A stretch of DNA of 64,000 nucleotides from an uncultured Acidobacteriota bacterium (GCA_963702425.1 CAVPCQ010000039.1:32001-96000), one strand, 5' to 3'. Shown: positions 838 through 63,973, numbered from the stretch's first letter. Translations and numbers: made by a program. Notes: generated by a model not told the origin, from the letters alone.

Positions 838-1001
838 GGGCGACTCCTCGCCCGGCCGTCCCGGACCCGGCCGGATCGTGTTGGACGGTTCCGCGCTCCG
901 CCGCGAGAATGGCGTGACGCGCATCCCGTTGTCCCCGGCCCGCGGGGACGACCTGCCGCGGAGATTACCAGTTGCCTCGATCGCCGTCCGGCGCCGCGCC
1001 C

Positions 1002-3341
1002 ATGCGCGGCGCGGCCCCGCGCCACAAGCCGACGCAGCGCTCACCCTTGGCCACCTGGACCGTACGCCTCGCGGCCTTCGCCGCGCTGCTCGCCGCGTTC
1101 GCGCTCTGGGGCTGGCTGGCGGTCGCGGGCGCGGGAACCGAGGCGGTGCGCGCGCTTCAGCAGAACCCCGCCGACGCGCCGGTCGAGGTCCTCGCTGCGC
1201 CGACGGTGCTGCGGACCGGCTCGGCTGTCGACCTCGGCGGACTCGGGCGCCAGTTGGCCGCGCTCGGCTACCGCCCGGTCACCGGGCGCCCCCGCGCGCC
1301 GGGGGAGTACCGGCGCCAGGGCGCCGCGTTCGAGATCTGGCGTCGCGCGCACCAGGGTCCGGACGGACCGATGGGGCAGGGATTCGTGCGCGTCGAAGGG
1401 GCCTGGGGCACGGTCTCGGCGCTGACCGACGAGCGCGGCAAACCGACGCGCGTCTTCGCGCTCGAGCCGGTCCGGCTGGGGGCCTTCCGCGGGCCGGTCC
1501 TGATGGAGCGGCGGCCGCTCGGCCTCAAGGAGTTCCCGCTCCGGCTGGTGCAGGCGGTGCTCGCCGCCGAGGACGCGCGCTTCCTCGACCACGGCGGGGT
1601 CGATCCGGTCGGCGTCGCCCGAGCCGCCTGGCACAACGTCGTCAGCGACGGACCGCTGCAGGGCGGCAGCACGATCACCCAGCAGGTGATCAAGAACCGC
1701 GTCGTCGGCGCCGATCGGACGGTCGAGCGCAAGCTGCGCGAGGCGCTGCTCGCGGCGTACGTCGAGCAGAGGGTCTCCAAGGAGCGGATCCTGGAGATCT
1801 ACCTCAACGAGGTCTACCTCGGGCAGCGCGGGCCGGTCTCGGTGGTCGGGATGCCGGCCGGCGCGCTGTTTTACTTCGGAAAGAACGTGCGCGAGCTGTC
1901 GCTGCCGGAGATGGCGGCGCTGGCGGCGCTGATCGCTTCGCCGGGACGGTTCGATCCGCGTGCAGAGCCCGAAGCGGCGCTCGGGCGGCGCAACTGGGTG
2001 CTGCGCCGGATGGCCGACGTGGGGTTCATCGACCGCGAGGCCGCGCGTGATGCGATCGAGACCCCGCTCGTCGTCGCGCCCGTCGCCGATCCGCTCGATC
2101 CGGCGGGCGATGTGCTCGACGCCGTCCAGCGCGAGCTGCGCGAACGCGGGGTCGAGCCACAGCCGGGGCCCGAGCAGGTGATGGTCCACACGACGATCGA
2201 CCCGACGCTGCAGGAGGCGGCGCGAGACGCGCTCGAGAGCGCGCTGACCGAGCTCGAGCGGGAGCAGCCCTCGCGGCGGCCGCTGGAGGGTGCGGTCGTC
2301 GTGCTTGACCCGGAAACCGGCGCGGTGCGGGCGCTGGTCGGGGGCCGCGCCGGAACGCGCGGGAGCTTCAATCGCGCGCTCGACGCGCGGCGTCAGCCCG
2401 GCTCGGCGTTCAAGCCGTTCGTGGCGCTCGCTGCGTTCGAGGAGCGAGGCAGCCTGCCGTCGACCGTCCTGGAGGACGAACCCCTGACGCTCGAGACCGC
2501 GCAGGGCCCGTGGAGCCCGCAGAACTTCGATCGCGAGTTCCGCGGCCCGGTGACGATCCGGCAGGCGCTCGAGCAGAGCCTGAACGTCCCGATGGTGCGG
2601 CTCGGGCTCGCGGTCGGCGCGTCGGACGTCGCGGCCTGGGCGCGTCGCGCGGGCTACAAGGGGCGCCTGCCGGACGGGCCGGCGATCGCGCTCGGTACCG
2701 GCGAAGCGACGCCGCTCGACCTGGCCGGGGCCTATGCGACGCTTGCCGCGCTGGGCCGCCCGCGCGCGGGCTGGATCGTGATCGGGGTGCGCGCCGGGCC
2801 GGCCGGGGTGGTGCGACCGCTCCGACCGGTTCCGCGCCCCGCCGCCACCGGCGTCGACGCGATCCCGGCGTGGCTGGTGCTCGACGCGATGTCCGGCTCG
2901 CCCGAGCGCGGGACGGCACGCAAGCTCGCACCGCTCTTGGGCGGGAAGCGGGTCGCGGCGAAGACCGGCACGACGCAGGGGGGGCGCGATGCCTGGTTCG
3001 TGCTGGTGACGGGCAAGGCGGTGGCCGTCGCCTGGGTGGGACGGGACGACAGCGGCCCGGCCGACCTGACCGGGGCCGGGGGAGCCCTGCCGGTCGTCGC
3101 CCGACTGCTGGAGGAGGTCCCGCAGGCGCTCCTCGCACCCCTCCCGGGACCCCCCGAGGGAGTGATCGAGGTGATGATCGACCCCGAGACCGGCGGGCTG
3201 GCGGGAAGCCGCTGCCCGACGCAGGTGCGCGAAGTCGTCCGCGAGGGGCAGGAGCCGGCCCCCTGCGGCACCCACCGGGGGTTCTGGCAGCGGCTCTTCG
3301 GCGGTTTCCGCGTCTGGACGCGAGGGGGCCGGGGGCCGTAG
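1002..3341 (+). CDS. Class A penicillin-binding protein (PBP1B-like transglycosylase/transpeptidase)
   Basis: N-terminal TM; GT51 motifs EDARFLDHGGVD, GGSTITQQVIK, RKLRE, KERILEIYLN; transpeptidase SAFK, SLN, KTGT; UB2H-like insert suggests PBP1B. ATG 1002 preferred to TTG 972. Confidence 0.93.
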   Translation: MRGAAPRHKPTQRSPLATWTVRLAAFAALLAAFALWGWLAVAGAGTEAVRALQQNPADAPVEVLAAPTVLRTGSAVDLGGLGRQLAALGYRPVTGRPRAPGEYRRQGAAFEIWRRAHQGPDGPMGQGFVRVEGAWGTVSALTDERGKPTRVFALEPVRLGAFRGPVLMERRPLGLKEFPLRLVQAVLAAEDARFLDHGGVDPVGVARAAWHNVVSDGPLQGGSTITQQVIKNRVVGADRTVERKLREALLAAYVEQRVSKERILEIYLNEVYLGQRGPVSVVGMPAGALFYFGKNVRELSLPEMAALAALIASPGRFDPRAEPEAALGRRNWVLRRMADVGFIDREAARDAIETPLVVAPVADPLDPAGDVLDAVQRELRERGVEPQPGPEQVMVHTTIDPTLQEAARDALESALTELEREQPSRRPLEGAVVVLDPETGAVRALVGGRAGTRGSFNRALDARRQPGSAFKPFVALAAFEERGSLPSTVLEDEPLTLETAQGPWSPQNFDREFRGPVTIRQALEQSLNVPMVRLGLAVGASDVAAWARRAGYKGRLPDGPAIALGTGEATPLDLAGAYATLAALGRPRAGWIVIGVRAGPAGVVRPLRPVPRPAATGVDAIPAWLVLDAMSGSPERGTARKLAPLLGGKRVAAKTGTTQGGRDAWFVLVTGKAVAVAWVGRDDSGPADLTGAGGALPVVARLLEEVPQALLAPLPGPPEGVIEVMIDPETGGLAGSRCPTQVREVVREGQEPAPCGTHRGFWQRLFGGFRVWTRGGRGP

Positions 3342-44668: not shown

Positions 44669-44697
44669 CGTTCCGTGCCTCCTCGTCCCGAGGAGAG

Positions 44698-44712
44698 GCA
44701 AGAGCGATGCCA
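44698..44712 (-). promoter_or_regulatory. Second sigma54 (-24/-12) promoter
   Basis: Minus strand TGGCATCGCTCTTGC with correct GG-N10-GC spacing, ~30 bp upstream of ATG 44668. Confidence 0.65.
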
Positions 44713-45293
44713 CACGTCGCGTCGCGCCCGGGCGAACCATCGCGAACGATGCCGCAGCGCAGCGGATCCCGAGATGGGAACCCCTCTGCCGGAATCCGGC
44801 ATCGGTTCGGACAGGATGGCCGGACGCGGCAACCGGTGTGCGCCCCCCTTCCTGAGAGCCGGCGCCGAGGTTTGAGGTTACCCGCCCTTCGAACCGCGTA
44901 AGGATGTTCGATCTGTCACACGGACCAGCTTGACATGGCGTCTCGGTTCGTGATCTCTCTCGCGCGTCGGCCACAAGCGTCGGCATCGGGAAGGGGGACC
45001 TCTCCCCGCCGACGCGCCTCCGGGGGGAGGCTTGCCGACGGCGCGCACGTACCCGCCGGGGGGAAACGGCAGGGATGAAGCGGAGCGCGCAGGAAACTGC
45101 GGTGCCCCAGGGCCCACAGACAAGCTCGTGATCGACGGCCCCGTCGGCCGTCCTTCGACTTCCTCGATCCGTCCACGGAGCGCAGCCGGACTCCCCTGCC
45201 GGGGATCGTCCGCCCGCGTGTGCGTTGGCCGCGAGGCGACGAGGGGGAGCGTGCGGCCCACCGGCAGTTGGTGCGGCCAGGGGAGGGGGTTCG

Positions 45294-48200
45294 ATGAGTG
45301 CAGGGATGGATCGCGCCACGAATCCGGCCGGAAGGGCACGGCAAGCGCTTCGTCACGCTGATCGAGCGCGCTGGCGGAGGGGCGCCGCAACGCTGGCGGT
45401 GCTGTTCGTTGCCGCGGTAGGCCACGGCTGGAGCCAGGAGAGCGCCGGCCCGGGCTCGCCCGGCGCGCCCGATCCGCTGCAGCAGTTCGCGGCCGGGCTG
45501 CCGATGATCCCGAGCGCGCTGGGCCACGCGACGATTCCGTCAGCGGCCGACACGTTCCCGCTGAAGCCGCTGGACCGCGACCCGACGGACGGTTTGCGGC
45601 ACGGCTTCGTGCAGACCGCGAGCGGGCGGTTCGGGTTCCGCGTGACGGACCTGTCGCTGCCGTCGCGGGTGCCGTTGACGGTGGGCCGGGTCTACGACGC
45701 GGGGCTGTTGGCCTCGCTACCCGGGGTGCCGATCGGGTACGAGCCGCGGATGTCGCGCGATCTCGGCCCGAACTGGATCCTGCAGCCGACCTCCGCGCTG
45801 TTGCCGACGCCGACCGGTTTCCTGCTGCTCACCGACCTGGGTGGCGTGGTGCCCTACGCGCTCGACCCGGCGACGGGCAAGTACTTCCCGGCGCCGGATC
45901 GGCCGTCGGAGTTCGGGGCGATGGTGCCCAACGGGCAGGGCGGGTTCAAGGTCCGGCTGAGCAACGGACGGCTGCGAACGTACAGCCATCTCTCCGGAGA
46001 CAGCAACTACTATCTGACGAAGGAGGAGGACGCCTCGGGCAACGCGATCACGCTGAGCTACCGCGTCGGGGAGGCGCCGGAGACGCTGGTGTACCTCGAG
46101 CGGATCGACTCCACCGACGGGCACTGGATCCGCTTCGATCGACCGATGTGGGGCGCCTCGGCCCCGGCGGGGGTCCCGCGCACGCGGATCGTGGGGATCG
46201 TCGATTCGATCGGGCGAGCGGTGAGCCTGAGCTATGACACGGCCGGCCAGTTGCTCAGTGCGACCGGGGTGTCGGGCGCGACCTGGACCTACGACTGGGA
46301 CGGCGCGCAGCACATCATCGAGATCACCGATCCCCTCGGGCGGCGCGCGTTCCAATTGACGATCGATGGCAGCAGCCGGGCCACGCGGGTCGAGCATTTC
46401 ACCGTGCGGACCGACTACGCCTACGAGACGGCGCGGACCCTGGTGAGCAACGTGCTGGGCGACACCTGGATCTACGAGAAGGACACCCGCGGCACGACGA
46501 CGCGCCTGGTCGACCCCGAGGGGAACGCGACGATCATCCAGCGCGACGCGACGCGCGCCGACGTGACGCAGATCACGGACGGTGCGGGCGGCGTGCACCT
46601 GTTCCAGCACGATACGGGCCATCGGGTGACGCGCTACCAGGCGCCGCCGGTGGCCGCCGGGACGCCGGTCTGGACCTTTGCGTGGGACACGGCGGGGCGG
46701 CTGGTGCGCTCGGTGAACCCTGTCGGCGCCGCGAGCACGCTGACGTACGACAGCGCGGGTCGGCTGATCGCGGAGGGGAGCGATCCGAACGGCGACGGAA
46801 CGGCCGAGGCCGTCGTGCAGTACGAGCGCCACGCCACCACCGGCGATCTGCTCGCCGTCGTCGTCCCCGTGACTGCGCAGACGACGCGGCGGACGGAGTA
46901 CACCTATGGACCGCACGGCGAGCTGGCGACGATCCACCCGCCGGCGCTCGCCGGGGGCACGATCCAGCCCGAGATCCGGCTGGAGTGGGATGCCGCCGGG
47001 AGGCTGGCGAAGCTGCGCTGGCCGACCGGGCCCGACGCCTGGTCGGACTGGCAGTTCGCCTGGGCGGCCAGCGGCGCGCTGGCCGCGACGACGAACCCAC
47101 TGGGCCAGCAGTGGCTCTACCTCAGCAACGCGCTCGGCGCGATCACCGAGGTCCACGCCCCGAACGGCGGCGTGGCGAAGTACTTCTGGCGGGCTGACGG
47201 CCAGCTCGAGCGTCACGAAGACGCTGCCGGCGGGGTGACGCAGCGCGACTTCGATTCCGCGGGGCGGCTGTGGCGGGTGATCGACCCCGCGGGATCGTCG
47301 TGGACGTACGCCTGGGATCGCGCGAACCGCCTGGCCTCGAAGACCGACGCCGAACAGCGGACCTGGCACTTCAGCTACGACGGCGCGAATCGGCTGGTGG
47401 AGCAGGAGCTGCCAGGCGGCCCGATCGTCGCTTCGACCTGGGACGCCGCGGGCCGGCTGACGCGGCGGGATCTGCCCGGCGGGGAGGCCGAGCTCTACAC
47501 CTGGGACACGGCCGGCCGGCTGACCGAGGCCCGGCAGGTCGTCGCCGACGGGGACGGCACCGCCGAGGACCGGTGGACCTACACCTGGGACGGTTGCGGC
47601 CTGCTGCGGACGATGACGCAGGAGCTGTCGGGCGACGCCACGGCGCAGACGGTCGAGTGGACTTGGGACTTGGCCGGGCAACTGGTCCGTCGGACCCTGT
47701 CCGGCGAAGGCCCGACGAGCGTGACGCGGGACGAATGGGGCCGCGCGATCGCAGTGTCGCCGACGGGTGCCGCGCCGAGCGCCGTGACGTTCGATCCGTG
47801 GTCGGGCTGGGTCACGTATCGGAAGCACGGCGCCGGGCTCGGATGTCTTTGAGGAATGGTCCAGCGCGCGACGCTGCGGGCCGGATCGTGGGGTTCCTGG
47901 AGAAGAAGAACGGCAGCGTGGTCCTCCAGGATCAGCACGCTGACGCGGGACGCGATGGGCCAGGTGGTCGAGGTCGTCGATGTGGCCGGGGCACTGCCGC
48001 GGACCACCACCCATGCCTGGGACATCCTGGGCCGGTTGGTCGCCAAGCAGGTGACGGGCGACCCGGCGACCGACTACGAGGAGACGCTCGCCTGGACGCC
48101 GCTGGGCCAGCTCGCCGGCCGCCGGCGCACGACGGCGTCGCGCGCGCCGGAGGAGCGCTTCTACCGCTTCGACCGCGTCGGACGACCGCTCGAGGTCACG

Positions 48201-51200
48201 GGCTCTGCAGGGATTCACGTCTACGCGTGGACGGACGCACCCGTCGGTGGGTCGGCCGCCTCGCTGGTGCGCCGGCTGGACTTCGGCAGCGAGCCCAGGA
48301 CGGTCGAGGTGGAGTTCGACGCCGATCAGCAGGTGCGCGGGGTGTTCGAGCTGCCGGACGGCACGCGGCATGAGCGACGGCGCTTCCGCTGGGCGCCCGG
48401 CGGCCATGGACGCTCGGCGCTGAGCCGCACTTGGAGCGACGCGGGGCAATTGGTGGCGGAGACGCGCTTGATACAGGACCTCGACGATCCGTCGCGCGGG
48501 CTGCCCCTGGCCGGGGCGGCGTGGCGAGGGACCGACCTGGAGCTGGTCGCGGCCGCCGACTCGGGAGCGTGGCGGACGGAACTGAGCGGCCGGCGCTTTG
48601 CAGACCGGGACGAGCTGCGTCCGGCACTGCGGGTCGTGGACGGATTCCCGGCCGCGCCCACGCTGCAGCTCGGCGGTTTGCGCACGCGGTCCGGCCTGCG
48701 CCTTCCCGAGCCGGTCGAGTTGAGCCGCGGACTGGTCGCGGACGACCTGCCGACGGCCGAGATGGCGCGCGTGCGCGCGGCGCTGCCCGAGCCGTCGTTC
48801 CTCGAGGACGAGTGGGGGCTTCCCGCCGCCAGCGCGCCGGTGGCGAAGACCCAGCGAGCTGTGGACCCGGGCTGTCAGGTCGTCGGGGGCGCCGTCTCGA
48901 TCAAGTGCGGCCAGGCCCGCTACATGGAGGGCGGCGCCATGTATGAATCGGGCTGCCGCCCCGCCGAGCCCGCTTGCCGGAGCGGTGGTGGGGGTGAAGC
49001 GGCGGGCTCCGGATCGGGCTACGCGTCGCATCCGCGGGAGCCGATCCGCAACGCTGACACGCACCCGCTCGGCGTGACGCTCTCGAACGGGGAGTTCCTG
49101 CTGACGGTCACCGACCTCGTCCTCCCCGGTCACGGCCTCGATCTCTCGTTGTCCCGGACGTATCGGAGTCAGTCCTATGAGGTGGGCGTCCTCGGGACGG
49201 GGTGGTCGGTTCCTACGTGGATGAGCGCCTGTGGGGGGCGCCCGGCGCGGGGCAACTGCACTTGGCAAACGGCGCGATCGTGGATCTCAGGGTGCCCGAA
49301 CGAGGCGACTTCGTGAAGTTCGACCTGGGCGTCCTGCGCCGGATCGATGCGCAGACGGCGGAATGGCGCGCCCTCGACGGCACGGTGATGCAGCTCTACG
49401 ATCCGGCTGGTAAGGACAACGGGCTCTTCGACGGACGCGTCACGCGCGTCACGCGTCCGGGGGCGACGCCGATCTCCATCGCATGGGCTGCCGCGAAGCC
49501 GGCCTGTGCTCCCGCTGGCTCGGTATTACAAGGCGCGAAAGTACCGACGGTCAGCCTGTGGAGCTGCGACAACGATCCGACCACCAACCCTCTCGGAGCC
49601 GCCACCTGCGCTCCGACCGAGATCGGGCGCCTGACCTTTGAAGAAGCCGAATGCGGCCCGCAACTGACGCACCGCATCCAGTCGGCCCTGGCCACGCAGT
49701 GGGACGGCGCGACCCAGCGCCAGCGCCGGGTGCGGTTCGAACATGGAACGGTGCCCGAAGAAAACGGAGTGGCGTCCGGCCTGCCCGAACGGGTGTGGTT
49801 CGCCGAGGTGGGAGGGTCCGCCGAGGCGCCGTGGCGCACTACACCTACACCTACAACAACGGGCAGCGGGATCTGACGAAGTGCGCGACGGCGCGGACGC
49901 CCTGATCAGCAGCTCCTCGATACGAGCCCCTGGGATGGCTTCGCGCAAGCCGACCGCGTGTCCGAGATCCGCACCCCCGACGCGAATGGGGACGGCACCG
50001 TGGAGTCAACGACCTTCAGCTACGAGTATCAAACGATCGAGGGGGCGTCCGATGCCGTCAAGCGCGTGACCGTGCACTCCGGCGGGCGCGTTTCGATCCA
50101 CGAGTACGACGACTTAGGCCACATGACTCGGTCACGCGGCCCGATGGGTCCGTGATGCGCTTGGAGTACGACCACTCGGCCGAATGAACAGGGCGATCTA
50201 CCCCTCCGGCAAGGAGCAGCGCTGGGTCTACGGCGCGGATCAGTGGGGACTACACCTCGAACACCCGATCAAGTTCGGCGAAATCGCGTCGCCTTCGCTG
50301 GTTGGCGGGACGGAGCAGTGGACCTGCTACGAGATCGATCCCGTGACGAACGAGGTCTGGCGGACGCTGGCTCCGAGCGGGGTGACGGGTGGAGAGACGG
50401 ACGGCTGTCTCATGAAGAGCGGAAGCGTTCTCAAGTCCCAGGCAACGGAGACGCTCTTCGGCTGGATGAAGGCCGCGCCCGGTGCGGACGCGGCGCTGGC
50501 GGCCTATTTCACGCGCTGGGGGATCACGCCCGGCCGGAGGCGTACGCCGGGACCGGGAGCGCGAAGGCCGCGTGGCCGTGGCTGGCGAAGGTCAGGAGAC
50601 AGGGCCGGGGCGCGAAGCAGGTCGTCGATTCGACGGGGGCGCTGGTGACGCAGAGCCCGCTGCAGCGGCCGGTTACGCGCTATACCTACAGAGTGCAGGG
50701 CTGGCTGACCCAGATCGATCATCCCGACACCGAGCCCGGCGATCTCGGGAAGGGTGTGACGCGCGAACGCTTCACCTACTAGGCTCCGAACGAGCTGGGC
50801 GCGCTGGACAGGACGGAAGCGGAAGAGCGTGGGCCGGTTGGCCTCGCACATGTAGACGATCAGGCGGCTGGACAGACTATGTCGAGCGCACGCACGAGGG
50901 AACGACCTACGACCGCTGGGGACAGCCGACGCAGGAGGCGCGGCTGCTGGACGGGAGAGGCAGCAGGGAGCGTTGGGTGGTGAACGAGACGAAGCGAGAT
51001 TTCCGAGGCTGGACGAAGAGCGAGAGTCAGATGCCGCGCAGCGAGAGAGGCCCTAGACGAACGTCGAATACCACCACGATGCGGCGGGCCGCGTGATCAG
51101 AAGCGGATCGACAAGACGAGCGACCGCGACGAGAACACGCATCTACGCCCTCGTGGAATACACCTACGGGGCGTCGGGCCTGCTGACGAGCGAGAGGAGT

Positions 51201-54096
51201 TGGGAGACGGCAAGCGCGGATGCGGCCGTGGACGGGGTCGGGTGTCTCGACCGAGCGCCGCTTCGCGCACGATGCCTTCGGCCACGTGGTCCAAGAAGAG
51301 ACACGTCTCGTGTCGAGGAAGTGGAAGATCGATGGAGTCTTTTTTGACGAGCTCGATCGACCGCAGCGGCAGGAGGCCTACGCTGTGGCCTGGAACGGGG
51401 CAGATCCTCCTCCTCCGCCGGACGACGACGACCCCCCGCTCCCCGGTGACTACGTGGTGCACGAGTTCTGGTACAACGCGACGACCGGCCTGCTGGACTG
51501 GGAGCAAGTACGCGCCGAAGCGAGCAGCGACAAGGTCATTTCGACGATGTACCGAGACGACGATGGCCACGAGCGGATACGGGATGAGCGAGCCTGCCGC
51601 GTGCCTGGCATCGTCGGCGGACTGCCGACATGCGCCAACGGCAACTGGCTGCGCCAGACGCTGCTGACGTACGACGTGGAGGATCGCGTGACGCTGCGCA
51701 AGGTGCTCGGCACGCCGGACAGCGAGTCGACGATCCTGTCCTGGGACGAGACCCTCTACGACACGCGGGGCCGGGCCTACGAGAGCCGGACGCGGTGGAG
51801 CAAGACCGGCCCGACGATCCCGACCAGCTGCACGGACGGCGCGGTCTGCGAGGTGCTGGCAAGCCGGGTGGGCTACGACGTGCGCGATCGCGCGGTGGTT
51901 CCGCCGCACCTGGACTGACGGACACGACCTGGCGGATCACGAAGACGAGTTCGACGGGCTGGGCCGCCGGCGCCAGGTCACCGATCCGCTCGGGAACGTC
52001 ACGACGCTGGTGCGCAACGCGGCCGGCCTGGCGACGGCGAAGACGGAGCAGGAGGTCTCGGACCTGGGCGGGCTGGGGACGAAGACCTGGGTGACGGAGT
52101 TCGGGTTCGACGCCCTGGGCCGGGCGGTGGAGGTGCGGCTGAAGGGCAAGCTGGACGCCGACCCGCAGCGGATCGTCAAGCGCACGCTCGACGCGCGGGG
52201 CCAGACGACGGCGCAGTGGACGCCACTCGGGTCCGCGGCTGCGGGTGACGCCTACAGCACGAAGACGGTCTACGACGGGCTCGGCCGCAAGACGGAGGAG
52301 TGGCGCCACGTCGGAGCGGCTCAGAGCTGGAGCGGGGCCTGGCAGAAGGTCTGTACGGCTTCGACGACGCCGGTCGGATGACGACGCTGACGGTCGCGAA
52401 CACGGCCTCCGGGACGGGGCTCCAGAACCAGGTCACGCAACTGGAGTACGACGCCCAGGGCCGGCGGACCAAGCGCTGCCTGCCGGACTTCCGGCAGGAG
52501 GTGAGCGCGTACCTGTCGAGCGGGCAGCTGAACACGCTGACGGTCACGAGCGCCGGGACGAATTGCAGCGCGCCCGGGACCAAGCAGATCGTGCAGACGT
52601 CGACCTGGGACGACGCGGGGCGCCGCACGCAACTGACGCTGACGACGCCGACGGCGGACGCCGCGCACTACGGCGGGACGAAGAAGCAGACCTGGATCTG
52701 GGACGCGCTGGACCGGCTGGAGAAGAGCACGGACGAGAACGCGGACGGCAGCGAGAACGCGGACGACGACGCGATCGTGCGCAAGAAGTACGACAGCCTG
52801 GGCCGGCCGGTGGAAGAGGGCTTCGGGGAGTCGTCGGGCGCGGCGCGCTGGAAGGTGCTCTCGGCGTACGACCGGCGCGGGGCGCGGATCTCGCTGAAGT
52901 ACCCCGCCGCGAACGGGACCGTCGGCACGACGCTGACGCTGGCCGCGGACACTCTCGGTCGAATGACCGGAATCACGGAGGGCGCGACGATCGTCGCGAC
53001 GCTGACCTACGTCGGGGCCGGCCGGCTGGCGAAGATCGACTCGCAGGACGACTCGGTTTGGCAGGGTCTGGACTGGGACGCGGCGGGCCGGCGGACGCGC
53101 GGCAAGGTGACGGAGGGCGCGACGTCCGCTTCGAGGAGGAGATCGCCTTCGACGCCGACGAACGGGTGCTGTCGGTCAAGTGGCCGCACCTGGTGAGCAG
53201 CGGCCGGCCGCAGGTCCAGCAATACGGCTACGACGAGCAGGCCCGGCTGCTGAAGCTGGAGCAGGGGTACGCCGAACCGAGCGGGAGAAGCTGGACCTTC
53301 CCGGTGGGCTACTCGGCCTTCCACGACTTCCATCTCGACGAGCAGGGCAACTGGGCCGAACATAAGGACGGCGCGGGGACGACGCTGGTGAGCCCGACGA
53401 TCGCCAAGGACAACGCGTACACGGCCTGGCCGGTCTCGGGCGGGTCGACGCTGAGCTTCGTGCTGGACGACACGGGGAGGTTCGTGTACGAGCGGCCGGT
53501 AGCGGGGGGCGGGAAGTACCTCTACCAGCACGACGGCCTCGGCCGCCTGATCTCGGCGCAGCGGATCAGCGTGCCGGGCAAGGCCGACCTGACGACGACC
53601 TACGGTTACACCGCGGACGGCCGGCTGGCCTGGCGCAAGGAGGGCGCGGCGGCGCGGGAGTGGCTGATCTACGACGGGTCGCAGGCGGTGGTGCAGACGA
53701 CCGACACCGCGCTGAGCTGGACCCACGTCTGGGCCGGAAGCCGGCTGGTGCGCTCGACGAAGCACCCGGCCGGACGGTCTACCAGCCGCACCAGGACCGG
53801 CTGGGCTCGATCGTGGTGTTGACGCGCAGCGGCGGCCCGGAACGGGCGCTCTACGACGCCTACGGCCGGCTGGTGGCGACGTTCTAGACGATCACGAACG
53901 ACACATTCGCGATCCCCTACGGCTACGCCGGCGCGCGCTGGGAGGCGACGCGGGACTGTACGAGATGGGGGCGCGCTGGTACGACCCGGAGCTGGGGAGA
54001 TTCATCGAGCAGGACCCGATCGGCGAGGCCGGCGGCCTGAACCTCTACGCCTACGTCGGGTCGAGCCCGACGCTGTGGGTCGATCCGACGGGGCTG
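45294..54096 (+). CDS. Giant RHS/YD-repeat polymorphic toxin, many frameshifts from ~47.8 kb onward (errors or pseudogenisation)
   Basis: Signal-like ATLAVLFVAAVGHGWSQE; DUF6531-like VQTASGRFGFRVTDLSLPSRVPLTVGRVYD; many YD/WD..GRL repeats; second DUF6531-like at ~49040-49210; core ARWYDPELGRFIEQDPIGEAGGLNLYAYVGSSPTLWVDPTGL ending 54096. Confidence 0.85.
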
Positions 54097-54099
54097 GCG
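52040..54099 (+). repeat. RHS 3' core repeat copy A (homologous to 55535-57588, 59242-60242, 61972-63440, 63734-63846)
   Basis: Long near-identical stretches, e.g. AAGACGGAGCAGGAGGTCTCGGACC and GACCCGATCGGCGAGGCCGGCGGCCTGAACCTCTACGCCTACGTCGGG. Confidence 0.92.
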
Positions 54100-54975
54100 C
54101 GAGACCTAACAGAGTGAAGGTTAGCGTTTAAGCAGAGCTGATTATGGCGATACGCTCAGCAGAAGGAGAAGAAGATAAAAAAGGAGACAGAGTTACGTAC
54201 ATGCGAATGTAAAAAAAAAAAGAAGAGGATGGTTAGATGACGGTGCATAGAGAGGTAAAAAGGTAAGCGGATGAGCATAAGAGTAACTCGAGAAGAGGGT
54301 TAAAAGGTGGTTACAAAGATGAGGTAAAGCTAGAGGATAGAAGGTGAAGGAAGGTGTTAGGTAGATGATTTAGAGTTAGAGAAGGATGAGAAAGGGAAGG
54401 AAAGTAGATATAGTAGGTGGTTGAGAGACTGATAGAGCTTTTGTAGAGCTAGAAGGTAAGGGAGACTATGGATTTATAAGGTGAATAGGGCACTAAGATA
54501 ATAGTTAGGATGGGAGATTTGAAGTCATTAATAGTACAAAAAGACTGTAGAGTTCACTGTAGGTGGTTTAGTAGGTAAGATGTAGATAGAGGCGCAGTAA
54601 GAGTAGCTTGCACAACTGGACAGAGACGTAGCGGTAAGGGTTTAGGGTTATAGGTTTGCAGAAAAGTGGAGTAGGTGTAGGGAGTTTTAGATAACGATAG
54701 AAGAGAGTGCATAGGGGGTTAGGACAAAATTGTTGTATTGTTGTGTTAAGATATCGCGCAAGAGATTGGGTATGTTGATAAGGTTCTCGCGATAAAGTGT
54801 AATAAGAGCAAGATGTGGTAGAGGCTGACAAGGTAAAAGGGAAGAAAGAGTATGAGTAAGATGTAGTAGAGCAGTATGAGAGTAGCTAATAGAAGGTGGC
54901 GCTTAGAGAACTCGGAATATAGAAGTAGGGTTATGAGGGAGTTAAGATGTGGATAAAGGTTATTATAATTCTAGT
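54097..54975 (+). other. Cytosine-depleted, A/G-rich non-coding tract in the toxin-tip position
   Basis: Starts directly after DPTGL; 54361-54420 contains no C; no plus-strand ORF of 60 aa or more before 54947; poly-A at ~54211. Confidence 0.85.
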
Positions 54976-55473
54976 TGTTTGTACGCTCTTCACTGGAGCG
55001 TCCGAGGGCGGTCAGCGACAGCTACCGCTGTCGCGCCTGCCGGAGGTGAGCCTCAAGTTTGACCGGATCTCCAAGATGAGCCGGCCAGAAGCAGATGAGA
55101 AGATTCGACAAGAACTTGCTGCGCGACTCGTAGCGGCCGGCGTGACGATCTCGGAGGAATCACATCAACATCTCGATTTCCGTGTCACGGAGACCGCCGT
55201 GCCTGGATGCTCGGAAATCGTACATCTCCGGCTTGAGGTCTGGCTTTGGGAGTCTGTCCTGCTGCCGCGACTGAACAGCGTCAAGTACGTAGTCGATACG
55301 TGAGCGCAACAGAGGACGAGTTCGTCTGCGCATCCGAGGTCGAGACAGAGTCTAGGAGTCGCCTCCTCTTCTTCGCGGATCGACACGTGATGACCGAGCT
55401 GGCGGCAATGCGAGAGATCGAGACGGAGAAGGGGACACCGACGAAGGCGCCTGTCCCCGCGGGTTCGAAGTAG
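54947..55473 (+). CDS. Putative exported immunity protein 1 (one-base frameshift near 55302)
   Basis: Signal-like MWIKVIIILVVCTLFTGASEG; adding one G (TG to TGG) joins VVDT to WSATEDEF...GSK stop; lies right after the tip slot. Confidence 0.55.
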
Positions 55474-55534
55474 CGACACGTGGTGTAGAAGCGTCACGAT
55501 CCAGGAACAACGTGTCACGACGCCACAGCTGCCC

Positions 55535-58487
55535 AAGACGGAGCAGGAGGTCTCGGACCCGGGCGGGCTGGGGACGAAGACCTGGGTGACGGAGTTCGGG
55601 TTCGATGCCTGGGCCGGGCGGTGGAAGTGCGGCTGAAGGGCAAGCAGGACGCCGACCCGCAGCGGATCGTCAAGCGCACGCTCGACGCGCGGGGCCTGAC
55701 GACGGCGCAGTGGACGCCGCTCGGGTCCGCGGCTGCGGGCGACGCCTACAGCACGAAGACGGTCTACGACGGGCTCGGCCGCAAGACGGAGGAGTAGCGC
55801 TACGTCGGAGCGACTCAGAGCTGGAGCGGAAACTGGCAGAAGGTGCTGTACGACTACGACGACGCGGGCCGGATGACGACGCTGACGGTCCCGAACACGG
55901 CTCGGGGGCGGGGCTCGAGAACCAGGTCACGCAGCTGGAGTACGACGCCCAGGGCCGGCGGACGAAGCGCTGCCTGCCGGACTTCCGGCAGGAGGTCAGC
56001 GCGTACCTGTCGAGCGGGCAATTGAGCACGCTGACGGTCACGAGCGCCGGGACGAGCTGCAGCGCGCCCGGGGCCAAGCAGATCGTGCAGACTTCCAGTT
56101 GGGACGACGCGGGGCGGCGGACGCAACTGACGCTGACGACGCCGACGGCGGACGCCGCGCACTACGGCGGGACGAAGAAGCAGACCTGGTCCTGGGACGC
56201 GCTGGACCGCTTGGAGAAGAGCACGGACGAGAACGCGGACGGCAGCGCGAACGCGGACGACGATGCGATCGTGCGGATGATGTACGACAGCCTGGGCCGT
56301 CCGCTGGAGGAGGGCTTCGGGAACTTGTCCGGCGCGGCGCGCTGGAAGGTGCTCTCGGCCTACGATCGGCGCGGAGTCCGTACGTCGCTGAAGTACCTCG
56401 CCGCGAACGGAACGTCGGCACCACGCTGGCGCTGGCCGCGGACATGTTCGGCCGGATGACCGGGATCACGGAGGGCGCGACCAGCGTCGCGACGCTGACC
56501 TACGTCGGGGCCGGCCGGCTGGCGCGGATCGTCTCGCAGGACGGTTCGGTCTGGCAGGGTCTGGACTGGGACGAGGCCGGGCGGCGGACGCGCGGCCAGG
56601 TGACGGAGGGTGCGGCGGTCCGCTTCGAAGAGGAGATCGCCTTCGACGCCGACGACCGGGTGCTGTCGGTCAAGTGGCCGCACCTGGTGAGCAGCAGCCG
56701 GCCGCAGGTCCAGCAATTCGGCTACGACGAGCAGGCCCGGCTGCTGAAGGTGGAGCAGGGCTACGGGACCTGGGATGGGACGACGTGGACCTTCACGGAG
56801 TACTCGGCCTTCCACGACTTCCATCTCGACGAGCAGGGCAACTGGGCCGAACATAAGGATGGCGCGGGGACGACGCTGGTGAGCTCGACGATCGCCAAGG
56901 ACAACGCGTACACGGCCTGGCCGGTTTCGGGGGGTCGACGCTGAGCTTCGTGCTGGACGACACGGGGAGGTTCGTGTACGAGCGCCCGGTAACCGGGGGT
57001 GGGGAGTACCTCTACTAGCACGACGGCCTCGGGTCGCCTGGTTCGGCGCAGCGGATCAGCGTACCGGGCAAGACCGACCTGACGACGACCTACGGCTACA
57101 CCGCGGACAGCCGGCTGGCTTGGCGCAAGGAGGGCGCGGCAGCGCGTGAGTGGCTGATCTACGACGGGTCGCAGGCGGTGGTGCAGACGACCGACACCGC
57201 GCTGACCTGGACCCACGTCTGGGCCGGAAGCCGGCTGGTGCGGTCGACGAAGAATAGGGCTCGGGACGGTCTACATCCGCACCAGGACCGGCTGGGCTCG
57301 ATCGTGGTGGTGACGCGCAGCGGCGGCCCAGACCGCGCACTCTACGACCCCTACGGCCGGCTGGTGGCGGCCTTCTCGACAATCACGAACGACACTTCGC
57401 GGTTCCCTACGGCTACGCCGGCGCGCGCTGGGAGGCGACGGCGGGGCTGTACCAGATGGGGGCGCGCTGGTACGACGCAGCTGGGACGGTTCCTCGAGCA
57501 GGACCCGATCGGCGAGGCCGGCGGCCTGAACCTCTACGCCTACGTCGGGTCGAGCTCGACGCTGTGGGTCGATCCGACGGGGCTGGCGAGGGAGAGTGCT
57601 ACAACGTGGGAACCGCTGGCGGCGGCTCTGGAAACCGCATGACGCAGATGAACTGGTCCTTCAGCGGCGGGTCCACCAGCGATTGTCTGACCGGCGGCTC
57701 GGGCGGATGGATCGACGCTGCCTTTGGGCGCCAAGATGACTACTAGGGTCCATCGAAGGACGAGCCTGGGTACCGCCTGACGACGCCGGCGCAGCGGCGG
57801 GCGGCCAAGAGGGCGGCGGAGAGCGCGACCGCGACCGCAGCCGCTGGCCAGTTCCCCGACAGCTTCGAAGCGATCATCGGATCATTCGAGAGGTTGGGAG
57901 CAGCGTCACCTGCGGGCATTCCTCTCCAATGCCACGACATGTATGCGAACTCGAGTACGGCCGATCGCCTGGCGCGGAAGTTCGCTGGAATCCGGCCACC
58001 AGTTCCTGTGCATATCGGGGACGACGTGAGTCATACGACCTTCGAGGAGACCCCGAGGGCCACGCGGCGCGTCCCAGTTCAGCACCGGTCGGGATGATCT
58101 GGATACGATCTCAGTCTACCGATGAGCAGGAGTGCCTCGACCTGGTGGAGGAGATGTGGCACGCGGTGGATGAGGCGAGTGTTGGCCATGTTGACCTGCC
58201 GGGATGAGCGAAACCGAATACAAGCAAGCGAAGCGCGACAGAGAGGCCGATGCAGCAATCGCGTGATCACCGTAAAGCAAGAGTTGATGCGCGCGAACTT
58301 CCCGAGGGCTCGCGGACTTCGTGTGCCTCTTGAGGCCTCGTACCTTTCGATGATTCGCGCTGGCCTGTCCGCACAATCGCTTCGTCAGCATATTGGGGAC
58401 CTCAAAGGAAAACTAGTCTTGCAGAATGGACTCACATACGAACAGAACTGGGAAACGGCGTGGCGGTCCGCTCAGCACGGGAGGTAG
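55535..58487 (+). pseudogene. Orphan RHS cassette 2 (core plus toxin tip with EExxH motif), frameshifted
   Basis: No start/RBS; ~2 kb copy of the core to DPTGL (~57585); tip reads across frames to LVEEMWHAVD and ends AWRSAQHGR stop. Confidence 0.8.
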
Positions 58488-59241: not shown

Positions 59242-61124
59242 TTCGTCGGGGAGATCGCCTTCGACGCCGACGACGGGTGCTGTCGGTCAAATGGCCGCAC
59301 CTGGTAAGCAGCGGTCGCCCCCAGGTCCAGCAATTCGACTACGACGAGCAGGCCGGCTGCTGAAGGTGGAGCAGGGCTACGGGACCTGGAACGGGACCGA
59401 GACGAAGTGGACCTTCACGCAGTACTCGTCCTTCCACGACTTCCGTCTGGACGAGCAGGGGAACTGGGCCGAACATCAGGACGGCGCGGGAGCGGAAGCA
59501 TCCTTGTGAACCGACGATCGTCCAGAGCAACGCCTACATAGAGTGGCCGGTGTCGGGCGGGTCGCCGCTGAAGTTCGTGCTGGACGACACGGGGAGGTTC
59601 CTGTACGAGCGGCCGGTGACCGGGGCCAGGAAGTACCTCTACCGGCACGACGGTCTCGGGCGCCTGGTCTCGGCCGAGAAGCAGAACGCGCAGGGCCAGA
59701 TCGTGAGCACCACGACCTACGGCTACACCGCGGACGGCCGGCTGGCCTGGCGGAAGGACGGTGCAGCGGATCGGGAGTGGCTGATCTACGACGGGTCGCA
59801 GGCCGTCGTGCAGATCCAGCAACCGTCCCAGGGGGTCGCCGCCCTGACCTGGACCCACGTCTGGGCCGGAAACCGGCTGGTGCGGACGACCCGTCATCAA
59901 GGGCAGAGCGCGAGCTACGTGCGGCACCAGGATCGGCTGGGATCGATCGTGTTGCTGCGGACGCTCGGGGACGGGAGCCTCGAGAAGAAGCTGTACGATC
60001 CCTACGGCCGTGTGGTCGCCGTTCCCACCGACAGCACGACGAGCCCGTTGCCGATCCCCTACGGCTACGCCGGCGCGCGCTGGGAGGCGACCGCGGGTCT
60101 GTACCAGATGGGGGCGCGCTGGTACGACCCGGAACTGGGGCGGTTCATCGAGCAGGACCCGATCGGCGAGGCCGGCGGCCTGAACCTCTACGCCTACGTC
60201 GGGTCGAGCCCGACACTGTGGGTCGATCCGACGGGGTTGGCGCGGCAGGGCGTTGGGGGATCCGTGATCGGTGGCGGCCCGGTGAACCGGACGAGTCAGC
60301 GTCAACTCCTCGTGGACGGGACGTCGACGAGCGACGTGCTGACGGGCTCGTCGGGCGGCTGGCTCGATTGGGGATCAAGGCACCAGACGGACTACTGGGG
60401 GCCCTCATACGACCAGCCCGGGTACGATCCGAAGACGCCCGCGCAGCGACGTGCTGAGAGAGGGGCCAGCGGGCAGGAGGCGAAGGGCGCGGCAGGCCAG
60501 GGCGGGGATACGGACCTTTACTCGATCATCGCGACCTTCCAACGCATCGGAGCGGAACTCGGCCCTTGGGCCAACAAGATCGACCTGCTCGCGATCAGCT
60601 CTCCCACGCTGCGGCAAGCCCTCGCCCTGGCGCAGCAGCACGACGCGCACTTCTCCGTCCGCGACAGAGCCACACCGAACTACTATCACGAGGGAAGTGA
60701 AAGCGACAACATCCCCGCGCGCACGATTCTCCTCCCGGGCACAACAGATGGCTACACGGCGGAAGATATCGCTCGAGCGATAGTCCACGAGACAACGCAT
60801 CTCGAGCAACACATGACCGGGAGGTTCCCTGACATTCGACAATTGAGCGAGGACAAGTACGTTGCGGGCGTCCTGAAGGCCGAGGCCGAGGCGTTCACGC
60901 GCGGCATGAAAGCCACCGAGGAGTTCTCCCGAGCGGGATTCGTGGTGGATAGGTCGTCTCTCGAAATGCACGTGGCAGCGTCAAGCGGGCTGCCGCAGGC
61001 GGGCGCGGCTTGGGAGCGGGCCGCGACGGCGGCAGCACTCGCTTGGGTCAGCAACCCAGACGTATCGCCCTATCCGGCAAGAGCGCATGCAAACTGGAGG
61101 AGCTACCATGCCCAGGCGAAGTAG
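59242..61124 (+). pseudogene. Orphan RHS cassette 3 (short core plus intact HExxH metallopeptidase-like tip)
   Basis: Open 59550-61124; core DPIG...DPTGL; tip AIVHETTHLEQ with downstream EAEAF. Confidence 0.85.
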
Positions 61125-61878
61125 GAACGTGCATACCCCAACGGCGTGCTTGATCGTTGTGACGCTCGTGTTCCTTACGGGCTTGTCTGCGCATCCTCAA
61201 GAGCCTCTGTGCGAGCCTGGATTCACGATGAGCCTGACGGGCAGCAAGGATCTGAAGTGGACCGTGCTCGATGACGAGGCTCGCCGAGAGCTGCTTGACC
61301 TGCTTTACAAGGAAGCTCCCCTTCTCGCCAAAGAGTTCCGATCGTGCGGGGAGCTGGCGCCGATTGTAGAGGTTCCGGCGCCATTCCTCCGCTCAGGCCG
61401 TCTCTACGCGGGGTGCCTTTGTCCTGATATGGAATGGTACTACTTTGGAGCTATCGACGATAGCGCCTACGCGCTCTACGGCAGTTCTACTCGACGCCAG
61501 AACTTCTACGCATTGACTGGATTGAGACTCGACCAAGCCGAAAACCGCCTATTGCTCGCGGTCTTCGATGTGACCGCGTCGCAAGCGCCGCCGAGGAGCT
61601 TCGTTCCAATCCAAGATCCGGGGAATCCGGGCGGAGAGCAGGCTCGGATCATGCGACGATGGAAGGGCTTCTTCAGCGAAGACCGAATGGAGCTGGTGAA
61701 GCGCAATCTGGACCGAGTGACGCCGCCGTGGCTGTGTTCCGAGGATTCGTGGTCGGGAGGCTTCTTCGCGACGGTTCCTTCGGGACTCCGGAGAATCGAC
61801 TTCTCGATCTCCAAAGGCGGCGGCGTCAGTTTCGCGGTGACGGAAGTTGCATCGACGGACGAACTGCACGGTAGATAG
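61108..61878 (+). CDS. Putative exported immunity protein 3
   Basis: Overlaps or abuts the tip stop (alternative GTG 61129); signal peptide ACLIVVTLVFLTGLSA; several Cys; lower GC. Confidence 0.7.
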   Translation: MPRRSRNVHTPTACLIVVTLVFLTGLSAHPQEPLCEPGFTMSLTGSKDLKWTVLDDEARRELLDLLYKEAPLLAKEFRSCGELAPIVEVPAPFLRSGRLYAGCLCPDMEWYYFGAIDDSAYALYGSSTRRQNFYALTGLRLDQAENRLLLAVFDVTASQAPPRSFVPIQDPGNPGGEQARIMRRWKGFFSEDRMELVKRNLDRVTPPWLCSEDSWSGGFFATVPSGLRRIDFSISKGGGVSFAVTEVASTDELHGR

Positions 61879-61971
61879 GAAGCGTGACGGCTGGTCCGTC
61901 TGTTTGATTGGCCGACGATCTGTGCCGACGGGAACGCGGAGACCCGTCGCGGCTAGCGAATGTGGATCGCG

Positions 61972-63440
61972 CACGCGCGCCGGGACGAGCTGCAGCGCGC
62001 CCGGGACCAAGCAGATCGTGCAGACCTCGACCTGGGACGACGCGGGGCGACGGACGCAACTGACCCTGACGACGCCGGCCGCGGACGCCGCGCACTACGG
62101 CGGGACGAAGAAGCAGACCTGGACCTGGGACGCGCTGGACCGCTTGGAGAAGAGCACGGACGAGAACGCGGACGGCAGCGCGAACGCGGACGACGACGCG
62201 ATCGTGCGGATGAAGTACGACAGCCTGGGCCGTCCGCTGGAGGAGGGCTTCGGGGAGTCGTCTGGCGCGGCGCGCTGGAAGGTGCTCTCGGCCTACGACC
62301 GGCGCGGAGTGCGTATCTCGCTGAAGTACCCCGCCGCGAACGGAACCGTCGGCACCACGCTGGCGCTGGCCGCGGACACTCTCGGCCGGATGACCGGGAT
62401 CACGGAGGGCGCGACGAGCGTCGCGACGCTGACCTACGTCGGGGCCGGCCGGCTGGCGAAGATCCAGTCGCAGGACGACTCGGTTTGGCAGGGTCTGGAC
62501 TGGGACGCGGCCGGCCGCCGGACGCGCGGCCAGGTGACGGAAGGCGCGACGGTCCGCTTCGAAGAGGAGATCGCCTTCGACGCCGACGACCGGGTGCTGT
62601 CGGTCAAGTGGCCGCACCTGGTGAGCAGCAGCCGGCCGCAGGTCCAGCAATTCGGCTACGACGAGCAGGCCCGGCTGCTGAAGCTCGAGCAGGGGTACGC
62701 CGATCCGAGCGGGAGCAGCTGGACCTTCCCGGTGGGCTACTCGGCCTTCCACGACTTCCATCTCGACGAGCAGGGCAACTGGGCCGAACATAAGGATGGC
62801 GCGGGGACGACGCTGGTGAGCCCGACGATCGCCAAGGACAACGCGTACACGGCCTGGCCGGTCTCGGGCGGGTCGACGCTGAGCTTCGTGCTGGACGACA
62901 CGGGGAGGTTCGTGTACGAGCGGCCGGTGGCCGGGGGCGGGAAGTACGTCTACAAGCACGACGGCCTCGGCCGCCTGGTGTCGGCGCAGCGGCTCAGCGT
63001 GCCGGGCAACGCCGACCTGACGACGACCTACGGCTACACCGCGGACAGCCGGCTGGCTTGGCGCAAGGAGGGGACGGCGGCGCGCGAGTGGCTGATCTAC
63101 GACGGGTCGCAGGCGGTGGTGCAGACGACCGACACCGCGCTGACCTGGACCCACGTCTGGGCCGGAAGCCGGCTGGTGCGGTCGACGAAGCACCCGGCCG
63201 GAACGGTCTACCATCCGCATCAGGACCGGCTGGGATCGATCGTGGTGGTGACGCGTAGCGGCGGACCGGACCGCGCGATCTATGATCCCTACGGCCGGCT
63301 GGTGGCGGCCTTCTCGACGATCACGAACGACACTTTCCCCGTGCCCTTCGGCTACACCGGGGCGCGCTGGGAGGCGACGGCGGGCCTCTACCAGATGGGG
63401 GCGCGCTGGTACGACCCGGAGCTGGGGCGGTTCATTGAGC
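61972..63440 (+). pseudogene. Orphan RHS core fragment 4, truncated just before DPIG, no toxin tip
   Basis: In-frame copy of the core from AGTSCSAPG to GRFIE; homology then ends abruptly. Confidence 0.85.
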
Positions 63441-63733
63441 CGGTGAGGCGGCCACATACGATGACGGGCTCAAAGCCCAATACTCGAATCGGCCGGCCCC
63501 GAGGTGAACGGCCCCCTCGCACCCAGCAGGTTGGTGACGCGTCTCACCTCGTCCCTGGCCCGGTGCAAGGCCGGAGACCACGAGCGCCCGGCCGAGCCAA
63601 GTCCCTCGCCCGAACCACTCGCCGCCCCCTGATCTCGCCTGGTGCTGCAGCGTCCGCTGGTCCTTGGATCTGCTTCCCTTCGGAACAGCCCGCGCTGCCA
63701 CGCGGACCGCGCTTCGCACAGAGTCGTACCCTG

Positions 63734-63846
63734 TACGACGAGCAGGCCCGGCTGCTGACGCTTGAGCAGGGGTACGCCGACCCGAGCGGGAGCGGCTGGA
63801 CCTTTCCGGCGGGCTACGCCGGCTTCCACGACTTCCATCTCGAAGA
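63734..63846 (+). repeat. Short RHS core fragment 5
   Basis: YDEQARLLTLEQGYADPSGSGWTFPAGYAGFHDFHL, a copy of ~62657-62769. Confidence 0.85.
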
Positions 63847-63973
63847 GCTCCGGATCTCGGAGCCCGGCGTCGGCGTGAAGGACCTCTCGCCGCACGGCTG
63901 GAAGGTCCGCTTTGAGGCCGACGTCAAGGCCCGCCGCTACGAGATCCTCAGCAAGCTCACCGGCGCCGCCTGA
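63847..63973 (+). mobile_element. Possible IS66-family transposase C-terminal remnant
   Basis: LRISEPGVGVKDLSPHGWKVRF resembles the TnpC end (L.RI......V.ELTP..WK); recalled similarity only. Confidence 0.4.

Follow-up and report, generated by a model that had tools for sequence, protein, structure and literature searches.

What purpose could a supposedly empty cocoon serve in a toxin? This question is raised by an RHS gene in a 64,000-nucleotide stretch of DNA (hereafter the window; positions are counted from its first letter) from an uncultured Acidobacteriota bacterium (GCA_963702425.1 CAVPCQ010000039.1:32001-96000), where two separately plugged YD-repeat cocoons appear to lie on one exported chain. 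RHS, Tc and teneurin shells form one cocoon per toxin, with delivery by a type VI secretion system (T6SS) spike, by TcA or by a cell-wall anchor, and to our knowledge RHS delivery in Acidobacteriota has not been studied. The locus probably represents a rare family of giant RHS polymorphic toxins, about 3300 amino acids (aa) long when intact, with two YD cocoons in tandem. The two-cocoon family is real, and it is poorly preserved in the window. An initial annotation, made from the sequence alone, had proposed a tandem-cocoon toxin here; its two plug-plus-YD modules and one core are present, but the window copy cannot be called a working toxin.

The gene lies on contig C39 of a metagenome-assembled genome (MAG; G000) of 5.1 Mb in 42 contigs with about 72% G+C. 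From the ATG at 45294, the translation passes through a signal-like N-terminus, plug 1, a YD shell, a segment free of YD repeats, plug 2, a second YD shell and a core (Table 1). Signal-like N-termini were judged by eye from translations; in the window the start codon is followed by a charged and then a hydrophobic stretch, in agreement with the initial annotation, and the motif RHGFVQTASGRFGFRVTDLSLP comes after this N-terminus, ahead of the YD repeats. Comparable N-termini are found in the homologues P0003, P0004, P0005, P0089, and P0115. Frames were called from a plot of G+C content at third codon positions (GC3), an ungapped tblastn path and a seven-state Viterbi frame model. The GC3 plot shows a single solid coding frame over about 45390-49250, shell 1 included, with GC3 of 0.85-0.98 and only a short disturbance at 47.8-47.95 kb.

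Both repeat arrays are preceded by a plug. RHS_repeat (PF05593) matches 45132-47849 at E 4e-45, and RHS repeats are also matched in the pieces of shell 2, so repeats flank plug 2 on both sides, as had been annotated. Plug 2 is a canonical DUF6531 domain, scoring 46-49 bits against a Pfam cut-off of 24.1 bits, and the second plug-like motif of the annotation is thereby borne out. Plug 1 is more divergent and is accepted as a plug because of its relatives only: the plug 1 of the ortholog P0002 scores 27.1 bits, over the cut-off, P0089 and P0115 likewise hold two DUF6531 stretches each, and the profiles of plug 1 and plug 2 align with hhalign at E 9.7e-5 (58% probability, 50 columns). An alignment of plug 1 from six sequences (A2) has 49 invariant columns. 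By these profiles, the two plugs appear to be distant duplicates.

Table 1. Features of the RHS locus, its downstream region and two intact homologues (window coordinates unless a locus handle is given).
Feature	Coordinates	Strand	Remarks
RHS gene locus	45294-54117	+	ATG 45294 to stop at 54115-54117
Start codon and signal-peptide-like N-terminus	45294..45440	+	By translation, charged n-region, then hydrophobic stretch AATLAVLFVAAVG
Plug 1, divergent DUF6531-like domain	45561..45926	+	Hidden Markov model (HMM) match 45609-45704, 21 bits
Shell 1, YD/RHS beta-hairpin array	45860..48490	+	Limits approximate, mapped from ortholog model; YD hairpins span ~870 aa
Patch of three frame changes in shell 1	47820..47935	+	Contains apparent in-frame TGA 47850-47852
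Shell 1 end and variable Cys/Gly linker	48490..49046	+	~190 aa without YD repeats; alignment A4
P-x-R-N...H-P-L-G-V lead-in and plug 2	49047..49217	+	Canonical DUF6531 at 49074-49217
Shell 2, long YD region	49217..53904	+	Colinear with shell 2 of intact homologues, P0001 included; read in pieces
Rhs-associated core	53905..54117	+	DPIGEAGGLNLYAYVGSSPTLWVDPTGL, then ARDLTE and stop 54115-54117
C-depleted stretch	54101..54998	.	A.36, C.07, G.33, T.23; without long plus-strand frame
Orphan cassette 1	55591..57639	+	C-terminal shell 2 fragment and Rhs core 57343-57585; frameshifted
Orphan cassette 2	59508..61124	+	Shell 2 fragment, core 59994-60239, ~295 aa tip; open reading frame (ORF) 59550-61124
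Orphan cassette 3	61847..63973	+	Shell 2 fragment, partial Rhs core 63281-63442
P0001, intact homologue	L009 1692-11891		3400 aa translated; database 3276 aa
P0002, intact homologue	L010 32-9997		3322 aa translated; database 3302 aa

The segment that separates the two modules is itself conserved. The end of shell 1 carries the motifs RRFRW.PGG, G.WR, GRR..RDE, LGG, and P.F.D.E.GL, and after the linker the translation reads PIRNADTHPLGVTLSNGEFLLTVTDLVLPGHGLDLSLSRTYRSQ..GTGWS. The residues P, R, N, G, V, L, and G of the lead-in and plug 2 are invariant in eight sequences, five of which have a His-Pro ahead of plug 2. ORF 47856-49316 crosses the whole junction in one frame, as first reported. A degenerate core-like stretch ending in RAVDPG had also been described at the end of shell 1, and this reading was abandoned: RAVDPG aligns with unrelated residues and is not conserved in eight aligned relatives, the shell 1 end has no HMM match to the Rhs core either in the window or in the intact homologues P0001 and P0002, and hhalign finds no profile similarity between the two (0.1% probability). 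The conserved Cys residues of the segment would fit an oxidising, extracytoplasmic location.

Each chain has one core, at the C-terminal end of module 2. In the window, TIGR03696 (Rhs_assc_core) matches 53905-54096 with 75 bits (E 3e-20), and the sequence DPIGEAGG...WVDPTGL holds the DPxGL...DPxGL aspartyl-protease motifs, which agrees with the canonical core of the initial annotation. Intact homologues carry 313-325 aa after the core. The observation that PAAR and T6SS genes are lacking next to the gene extends to the source genome, in which (at 91% completeness and 5.85% contamination) the models for TssC (PF05943) and PAAR (PF05488) have no match.

Evidence for the two-module chain comes from relatives with intact frames, of 3276-3331 aa, which a search for homologues of the same architecture recovered with the order of domains unchanged. 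P0001 and P0002 both open with a signal-like start and the motif of plug 1, have RHS repeats that TIGR01643 matches at E 1e-60 to 4e-70, and contain a mid-protein DUF6531 (residues 1353-1427 and 1256-1330, respectively) and a single Rhs_assc_core (3007-3087 and 2917-2997). Two DUF6531 stretches were found in each of P0002, P0089, and P0115. The window's junction ORF (47937-49220) is matched in 13 of 41 related genomes at E ≤ 0.001. Near-full matches lie in open frames of 3402 aa (G007), 3399 aa (G016), 2203 aa (G018), and 1619 aa (G022), as well as 2891 and 2578 aa (G017, where contig ends truncate both) and 2113 and 1528 aa (G013). The junction sits within unbroken ORFs of at least four other genomes, which represent four genera. 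Over their full length, the two G017 copies share about 34% identity with P0002, and across genera the two-module order is conserved at about 32-37% identity. The intact members P0001 and P0002 are better subjects for further work than the window copy.

Wider searches indicate a narrow distribution. At E ≤ 1e-10 the P0002 junction is matched in 12 genomes out of 119 in the class; the nine that cover most of it all belong to one family (f1), the source genome among them, three of another family (f14) match plug 2 only, and the other 17 families have no match. With shell 1 of P0001 as the query, a search of 5.8 billion proteins of 1870-5950 aa gave 2337 matches among 8000 scored candidates; among these candidates only P0003, P0004, and P0005 reach at least 39% identity together with at least 91% coverage. 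Fourteen giant RHS proteins from this search were scanned with Pfam. P0005, P0089, and P0115, which come from independent collections (Logan, JGI, and ENA, respectively), are 3265-3331 aa long with a plug at 1233-1347. In each of the remaining 11 there is a single plug, at 557-982 or at 2823. It precedes 35-46 repeat stretches in ten of these proteins, and CBM96, LysM or TGFb-propeptide-like heads occur in nine; this arrangement is the WapA pattern, shown by nine Gram-positive-type proteins of the scan. Against 1.84 billion representatives, a profile built from the end of shell 1, the linker and plug 2 gave 914 matches at E ≤ 0.001; the whole profile is spanned in six of the best 150 (P0003, P0005, P0176, and three fragments), and the rest of these match the plug only. 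Scanning species-representative genomes with a plug 1 profile confirmed seven loci, six of them titled as Acidobacteriota or Acidobacteria MAGs and the seventh a 25-residue match in an Ornithinibacter MAG. The two-cocoon family is rare and, by the titles of related records, belongs to uncultured Acidobacteriota.

Structure models bear on whether each module is a cocoon of its own. For shell 1, AlphaFold was run on P0002 residues 54-1250 with a 9-row alignment; the model has a mean predicted local distance difference test score (pLDDT) of 61.8 and a predicted template modelling score (pTM) of 0.62, and the hairpins at 140-1010 reach pLDDT 70-85. The best Foldseek matches of this model are whole T6SS Rhs cores: 8qja_D is found at E 1e-49, with a template modelling score of 0.66 by target, over 963 columns of the 1021-residue chain, and teneurins and TcB-TcC rank after it. 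In VIA, residues 83..1101 of the model align with S. bongori Rhs (8qjb_A 365..1416; Z 19.5, 842 residues) and residues 61..1101 with RhsA 289..1338. Because it superposes on complete Rhs cocoons, shell 1 alone is predicted to have the size and shape of a whole cocoon.

A second AlphaFold model covers the junction (P0002 residues 700-1899, 8 rows), with pLDDT 57 and pTM 0.40 overall. Its confidence is uneven: pLDDT is about 75 up to residue 345, falls to 20-40 between 345 and 551, and rises to 70-90 at 552-940. Residues 1-431 match the C-terminal part of a TcC/RHS2 shell (4igl_D 104..671, Z 14.7) and a teneurin-like protein (TLP; Z 17.1), and residues 544-968 align with the plug and initial turns of RhsA (273..636, Z 23.8) and S. 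bongori Rhs (360..666, Z 24.0). As modelled, one cocoon ends at the junction and, beyond a gap of low confidence, another begins, and the whole is not one continuous barrel; the two models together support the two cocoons of the initial annotation.

Among known systems, the closest in overall plan is S. suis WapA-CT1. The accessible text of its report describes a Sec-dependent RHS protein of 3158 aa that has two Rhs domains and is modelled as one column, with one DUF6531, DNRLRE and LysM wall-binding N-terminal domains, and Rhs domains that both end in a cleavage motif, the cuts lying at 735, 1819, and 2716 (PMC12704120). To the extent of that text, the proteins described here resemble WapA-CT1 in being giant, T6SS-independent chains with a signal peptide (here judged by eye), more YD repeat than one cocoon needs, a DUF6531 plug and a single terminal Rhs core; a polymorphic C-terminal toxin, putative here, and a truncated second cassette downstream are further common points. 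Unlike WapA-CT1 as it is there portrayed, they have two plugs, their shells are separated by about 200 residues that contain no YD repeats, shell 1 ends in neither a core nor a cleavage motif, Pfam finds no wall-binding domains (LysM, CBM96) in P0001 or P0002, and the hosts are titled Acidobacteriota. Their DUF6531 lies at residue ~1250-1350, after a shell 1 of about 1100 aa, which departs from the WapA-type single-column pattern of S. suis WapA-CT1 and B. subtilis WapA, where one DUF6531 lid comes behind wall-binding domains (LysM, CBM96/DNRLRE) and leads into an unbroken repeat array of double length. No two-plug, two-cocoon chain came up in searches of open-access full text (PMC and bioRxiv), where phrase searches led to the S. 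suis report only. The suggestion of an undescribed system therefore holds in part: two plugged cocoons in one chain appear new, but a Sec-dependent protein with two Rhs domains is already in print, as the available portion of that report states (PMC12704120).

The T6SS Rhs effectors (P. protegens RhsA 7q97, the S. bongori and Advenella proteins of the 8qj series, Photorhabdus Rhs1 7pq5, Tse5, Tse15, and RhsP) provide the counterpart for each module taken singly. Both modules correspond to their cocoon in having a plug and a three-layer YD shell. Shell 1 aligns with their chains over 842-870 residues, and module 2 shares their DPxGL core. The His-Pro before plug 2 recalls the N-terminal cut site of RhsA, H304/P305, which lies ahead of the plug in the part of the RhsA report consulted (PMC8765631). 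However, these effectors have one cocoon and an N-terminus that is PAAR, prePAAR or VgrG-binding, and they need the T6SS, whereas the chain described here has two cocoons and a signal-like N-terminus.

Teneurins and TLP (9ifo) offer a precedent for a shell without an enclosed toxin: in the accessible sections of the source, the chain leaves the YD shell and further domains lie outside it, and many of these proteins are Sec-exported (PMC13018210). Shell 1 and its end align with such shells at Z 15-19, matches that would reflect the shared YD shell. As that source presents them, teneurin-type proteins are recognised by the combination of FN-plug, NHL propeller and a single YD shell, whereas the plugs here are of the DUF6531 type. 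In P0001 and P0002, Pfam finds neither NHL at E ≤ 0.1 nor an FN-plug, and TEN_YD-shell scores only 19 bits against a cut-off of 50. TcB-TcC is similar in building a large YD cocoon from two consecutive parts; the end of shell 1 resembles that of the TcC shell, and plug 2 resembles the N-terminal domain of TcB/SpvB (6p0x, Z 14.7). However, TcB and TcC make one cocoon with a propeller gate that docks on TcA, whereas each part here has its own plug. Neither a propeller nor the SpvB family is detected by Pfam in P0001 or P0002, and no TcA-like partner is seen adjoining the gene, a statement that covers the neighbourhood, as TcA was not searched for genome-wide.

These comparisons suggest how such a protein could work. 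One Sec-type exported chain would carry both cocoons. Module 1 would consist of a divergent plug, a YD shell of full size and a final non-YD segment that lost, or never had, the core and aspartyl-protease motifs, and the Cys/Gly linker would join it to module 2. By analogy with Rhs, Tc and teneurin shells, module 2 may enclose a variable C-terminal toxin and free it by a cut at DPxGL. Module 1 may be an empty or linker-filled shell for delivery or attachment, standing in for the PAAR/VgrG adaptor of the T6SS or for WapA's cell-wall-binding head. Self-cleavage may occur at the His-Pro ahead of plug 2, as it does before the RhsA plug, and the three core-plus-tip cassettes downstream may be spare toxin ends that are exchanged by recombination. 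It seems improbable that the first cocoon is a second functional container, or the delivery device itself, as opposed to a passive spacer; if it is, its own cargo might be the conserved Cys-bearing segment of about 190 aa, or it might bind the target cell and hand shell 2 over after His-Pro self-cleavage. Acidobacteriota are a diderm phylum, and under either of these improbable readings a diderm without T6SS would gain a self-contained, Sec-launched delivery of an encapsulated toxin, with two cocoons in series as a new RHS delivery logic.

Several observations weigh against the tandem-cocoon toxin. Plug 1 of the window scores below the Pfam cut-off (Table 1) and gave no match in the excised stretches of L009 and L011, so that of the two plugs and one core expected by HMM, plug 2 and the single core are found directly and the first plug-like motif stands through relatives. 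Both structural models derive from alignments of only 8-9 sequences, pLDDT is below 50 for plug 1 and, at 20-40 in both models, for the shell 1 end, and because both ends are of low confidence, shell 1 is judged to be closed by its superposition as a whole and not by direct sight; shell 2 (about 1740 aa) is covered by models only in part. No toxin tip can be read in the window copy because its frame stops six codons past DPTGL. The tips of P0001, P0002, and orphan cassette 2 have no match at Pfam cut-offs, and toxicity is assumed from context. A Sec-exported protein of 350 kDa would also have to cross an outer membrane. The low confidence at both ends of shell 1 would suit one extra-long single barrel, with a lid and the core at opposite ends and the mid-chain DUF6531 as a relic, as would the single-column model of the 3158 aa two-Rhs-domain protein, so far as its accessible text goes (PMC12704120), and the many repeat stretches after the only plug of ten among the 11 one-plug giants. 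Such a barrel is nevertheless unlikely: about 200 non-YD residues and a conserved, above-cut-off plug break the repeats, shell 1 alone superposes on complete cocoons, the part before the gap matches cocoon ends and the part after it cocoon starts, and the junction pTM fits two bodies. That the fusion is an assembly artefact, with two neighbouring rhs genes joined or a misjoin near 49 kb, is very improbable and largely refuted. The MAG has contamination and patches of indel errors, repeat-rich rhs loci misassemble readily, and the frame breaks exactly past plug 2, at 49210; but the same junction occurs in the uninterrupted ORFs of the four other genera and in the proteins from independent collections, and independent contigs bridge 48990-49581, 49155-49361, and 49338-49546.

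The preferred reading of a tandem-cocoon family leaves the state of the window copy to be explained. The initial annotation had overlooked that the chain runs through several frames, that a TGA at 47850 lies in a patch of three frameshifts, and that the tip is missing. Across the patch (about 110 nt), three-frame translation moves from phase 2 through 0 and 1 back to 2 with the repeat text continuing, and the Viterbi path switches at 47875 and 47929. Shell 2 changes frame near 49210, 50140, 50172, 50500, 50700-50900, 51916, 52340, 53110, 53764, and 53956, with two weaker changes at 51.3-51.6 kb; the GC3 plot likewise shows repeated frame changes from 49250 to 54.1 kb, and again across 55.5-57.5 kb. 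This amounts to at least ten changes between 49210 and 53956 and, with the patch, at least 13 in 8.8 kb, compared with 0.51 same-strand switches per kb and a median of two per 5 kb window in the frame model of the whole genome. Some twenty dense clusters are spread over the rest of the genome, the densest reaching 18 switches per 5 kb on C11, where a cluster breaks pckA and an aminotransferase; the match to the pckA Pfam model is split into three or more frame pieces, and one of these contains an internal TGA. Patches of 10-18 switches per 5 kb were seen at C11 282-300 kb, C28 82-97 kb, and C25 55-62 kb, and on C10, C9, and C13.

Contigs of four public runs from three studies were aligned to 44500-58000. 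They are 88-99% alike and so come from related strains; even the best run contains 0.16 of the sampled words, none of the contigs extends over the entire gene, and the frame comparison excludes 49.9-50.8 kb, which they leave nearly uncovered. Related contigs carry one more base at 51948 (4/4 runs), 53773 (3/4), and 53948/53949 (2/4), and one gap each within 48990-49581 (X1) and 49155-49361 (X3); these environmental contigs are thus in frame at four of the window's frame switches. On balance, the frame breaks are likely to be consensus errors of the MAG, a reading favoured because housekeeping genes such as pckA are broken in the same way, and the patches bear on any other finding in this genome that depends on ORF integrity. 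Decay of the window copy to a pseudogene is less probable but a substantial possibility. The contigs without the frameshifts belong to other strains and are no proof of assembly error, and three observations fit decay as well as errors: GC3 drops to 0.68-0.85 at 49.3-51.5 kb, the toxin tip is missing, and the ortholog in a genome of the same genus (G003; L013, G003:C3:68000-86000) is also fragmented over several frames, its match containing an internal TGA. The fuller version, in which the architecture is real but the locus is dead, the tip having been lost to insertion or replacement by the C-depleted 0.9 kb, is slightly less probable still. It would account for the excess of frame changes over the genome median, the lowered GC3, the stop soon after DPTGL, the frameshifts in orphan cassette 1 and the diverged presence of the C-depleted stretch in an independent contig. 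However, switching is equally dense in pckA and the C11 aminotransferase, genes unlikely to be dead, and GC3 remains 0.93-0.98 over 51.6-53.8 kb despite five frame changes, which suggests recent or artificial indels.

The C-depleted stretch begins directly past the Rhs core, where a toxin tip and immunity gene are expected. Its G+C content is about 40%, whereas that of the genome is 72%, and nothing else like it exists in the 5.1 Mb. It is not merely assembly noise because an independent contig from another run (X2 record 14) covers 54445-54675 and 54785-55479 at about 80-93%. The stretch has no Rfam or plasmid match and no tandem repeat beyond a 16-nt one, and among 40 relatives its DNA is absent but for 60 nt in G004. 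A small ORF adjoining it (54947-55303, 118 aa) has a signal- or lipoprotein-like start (MWIKVIIILVVCTLFTGAS) and no Pfam family, and its first ~60 nt are the region's only match to that same-genus genome. This ORF could be an immunity gene left without its toxin.

Relatives of P0002 in the source genome are confined to C39, where they comprise the main gene and fragments at 55591-57588, 59508-60380, and 61916-63439. The three downstream cores form what appears from their sequences to be the classic orphan-cassette layout. Three cores (53950-54114, 57199-57639, and 59850-60260) are near identical from AGLY.MGARWYDPELGRF to WVDPTGLAR and then diverge at once. Judged from the alignment, this appears to be a sharp recombination boundary typical of toxin-tip exchange. 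Upstream of the gene lie a tetratricopeptide repeat (TPR) protein (42114-44096, minus strand) and an Rce1-like protease gene. A conserved upstream partner was considered and rejected; the window's TPR protein, the TPR-helix-turn-helix protein of G016 and the neighbour in G017 are all unrelated. Other rhs loci of the genome lie at C33 ~85-92 kb, C40 55-70 kb, C30 66-68 kb, and C17 54-58 kb. Among them, none resembles P0002 at E ≤ 1e-15 and DUF6531 is matched in the C17 gene only; they hold open frames of 2300, 2275, and 1560 aa together with orphan core arrays.

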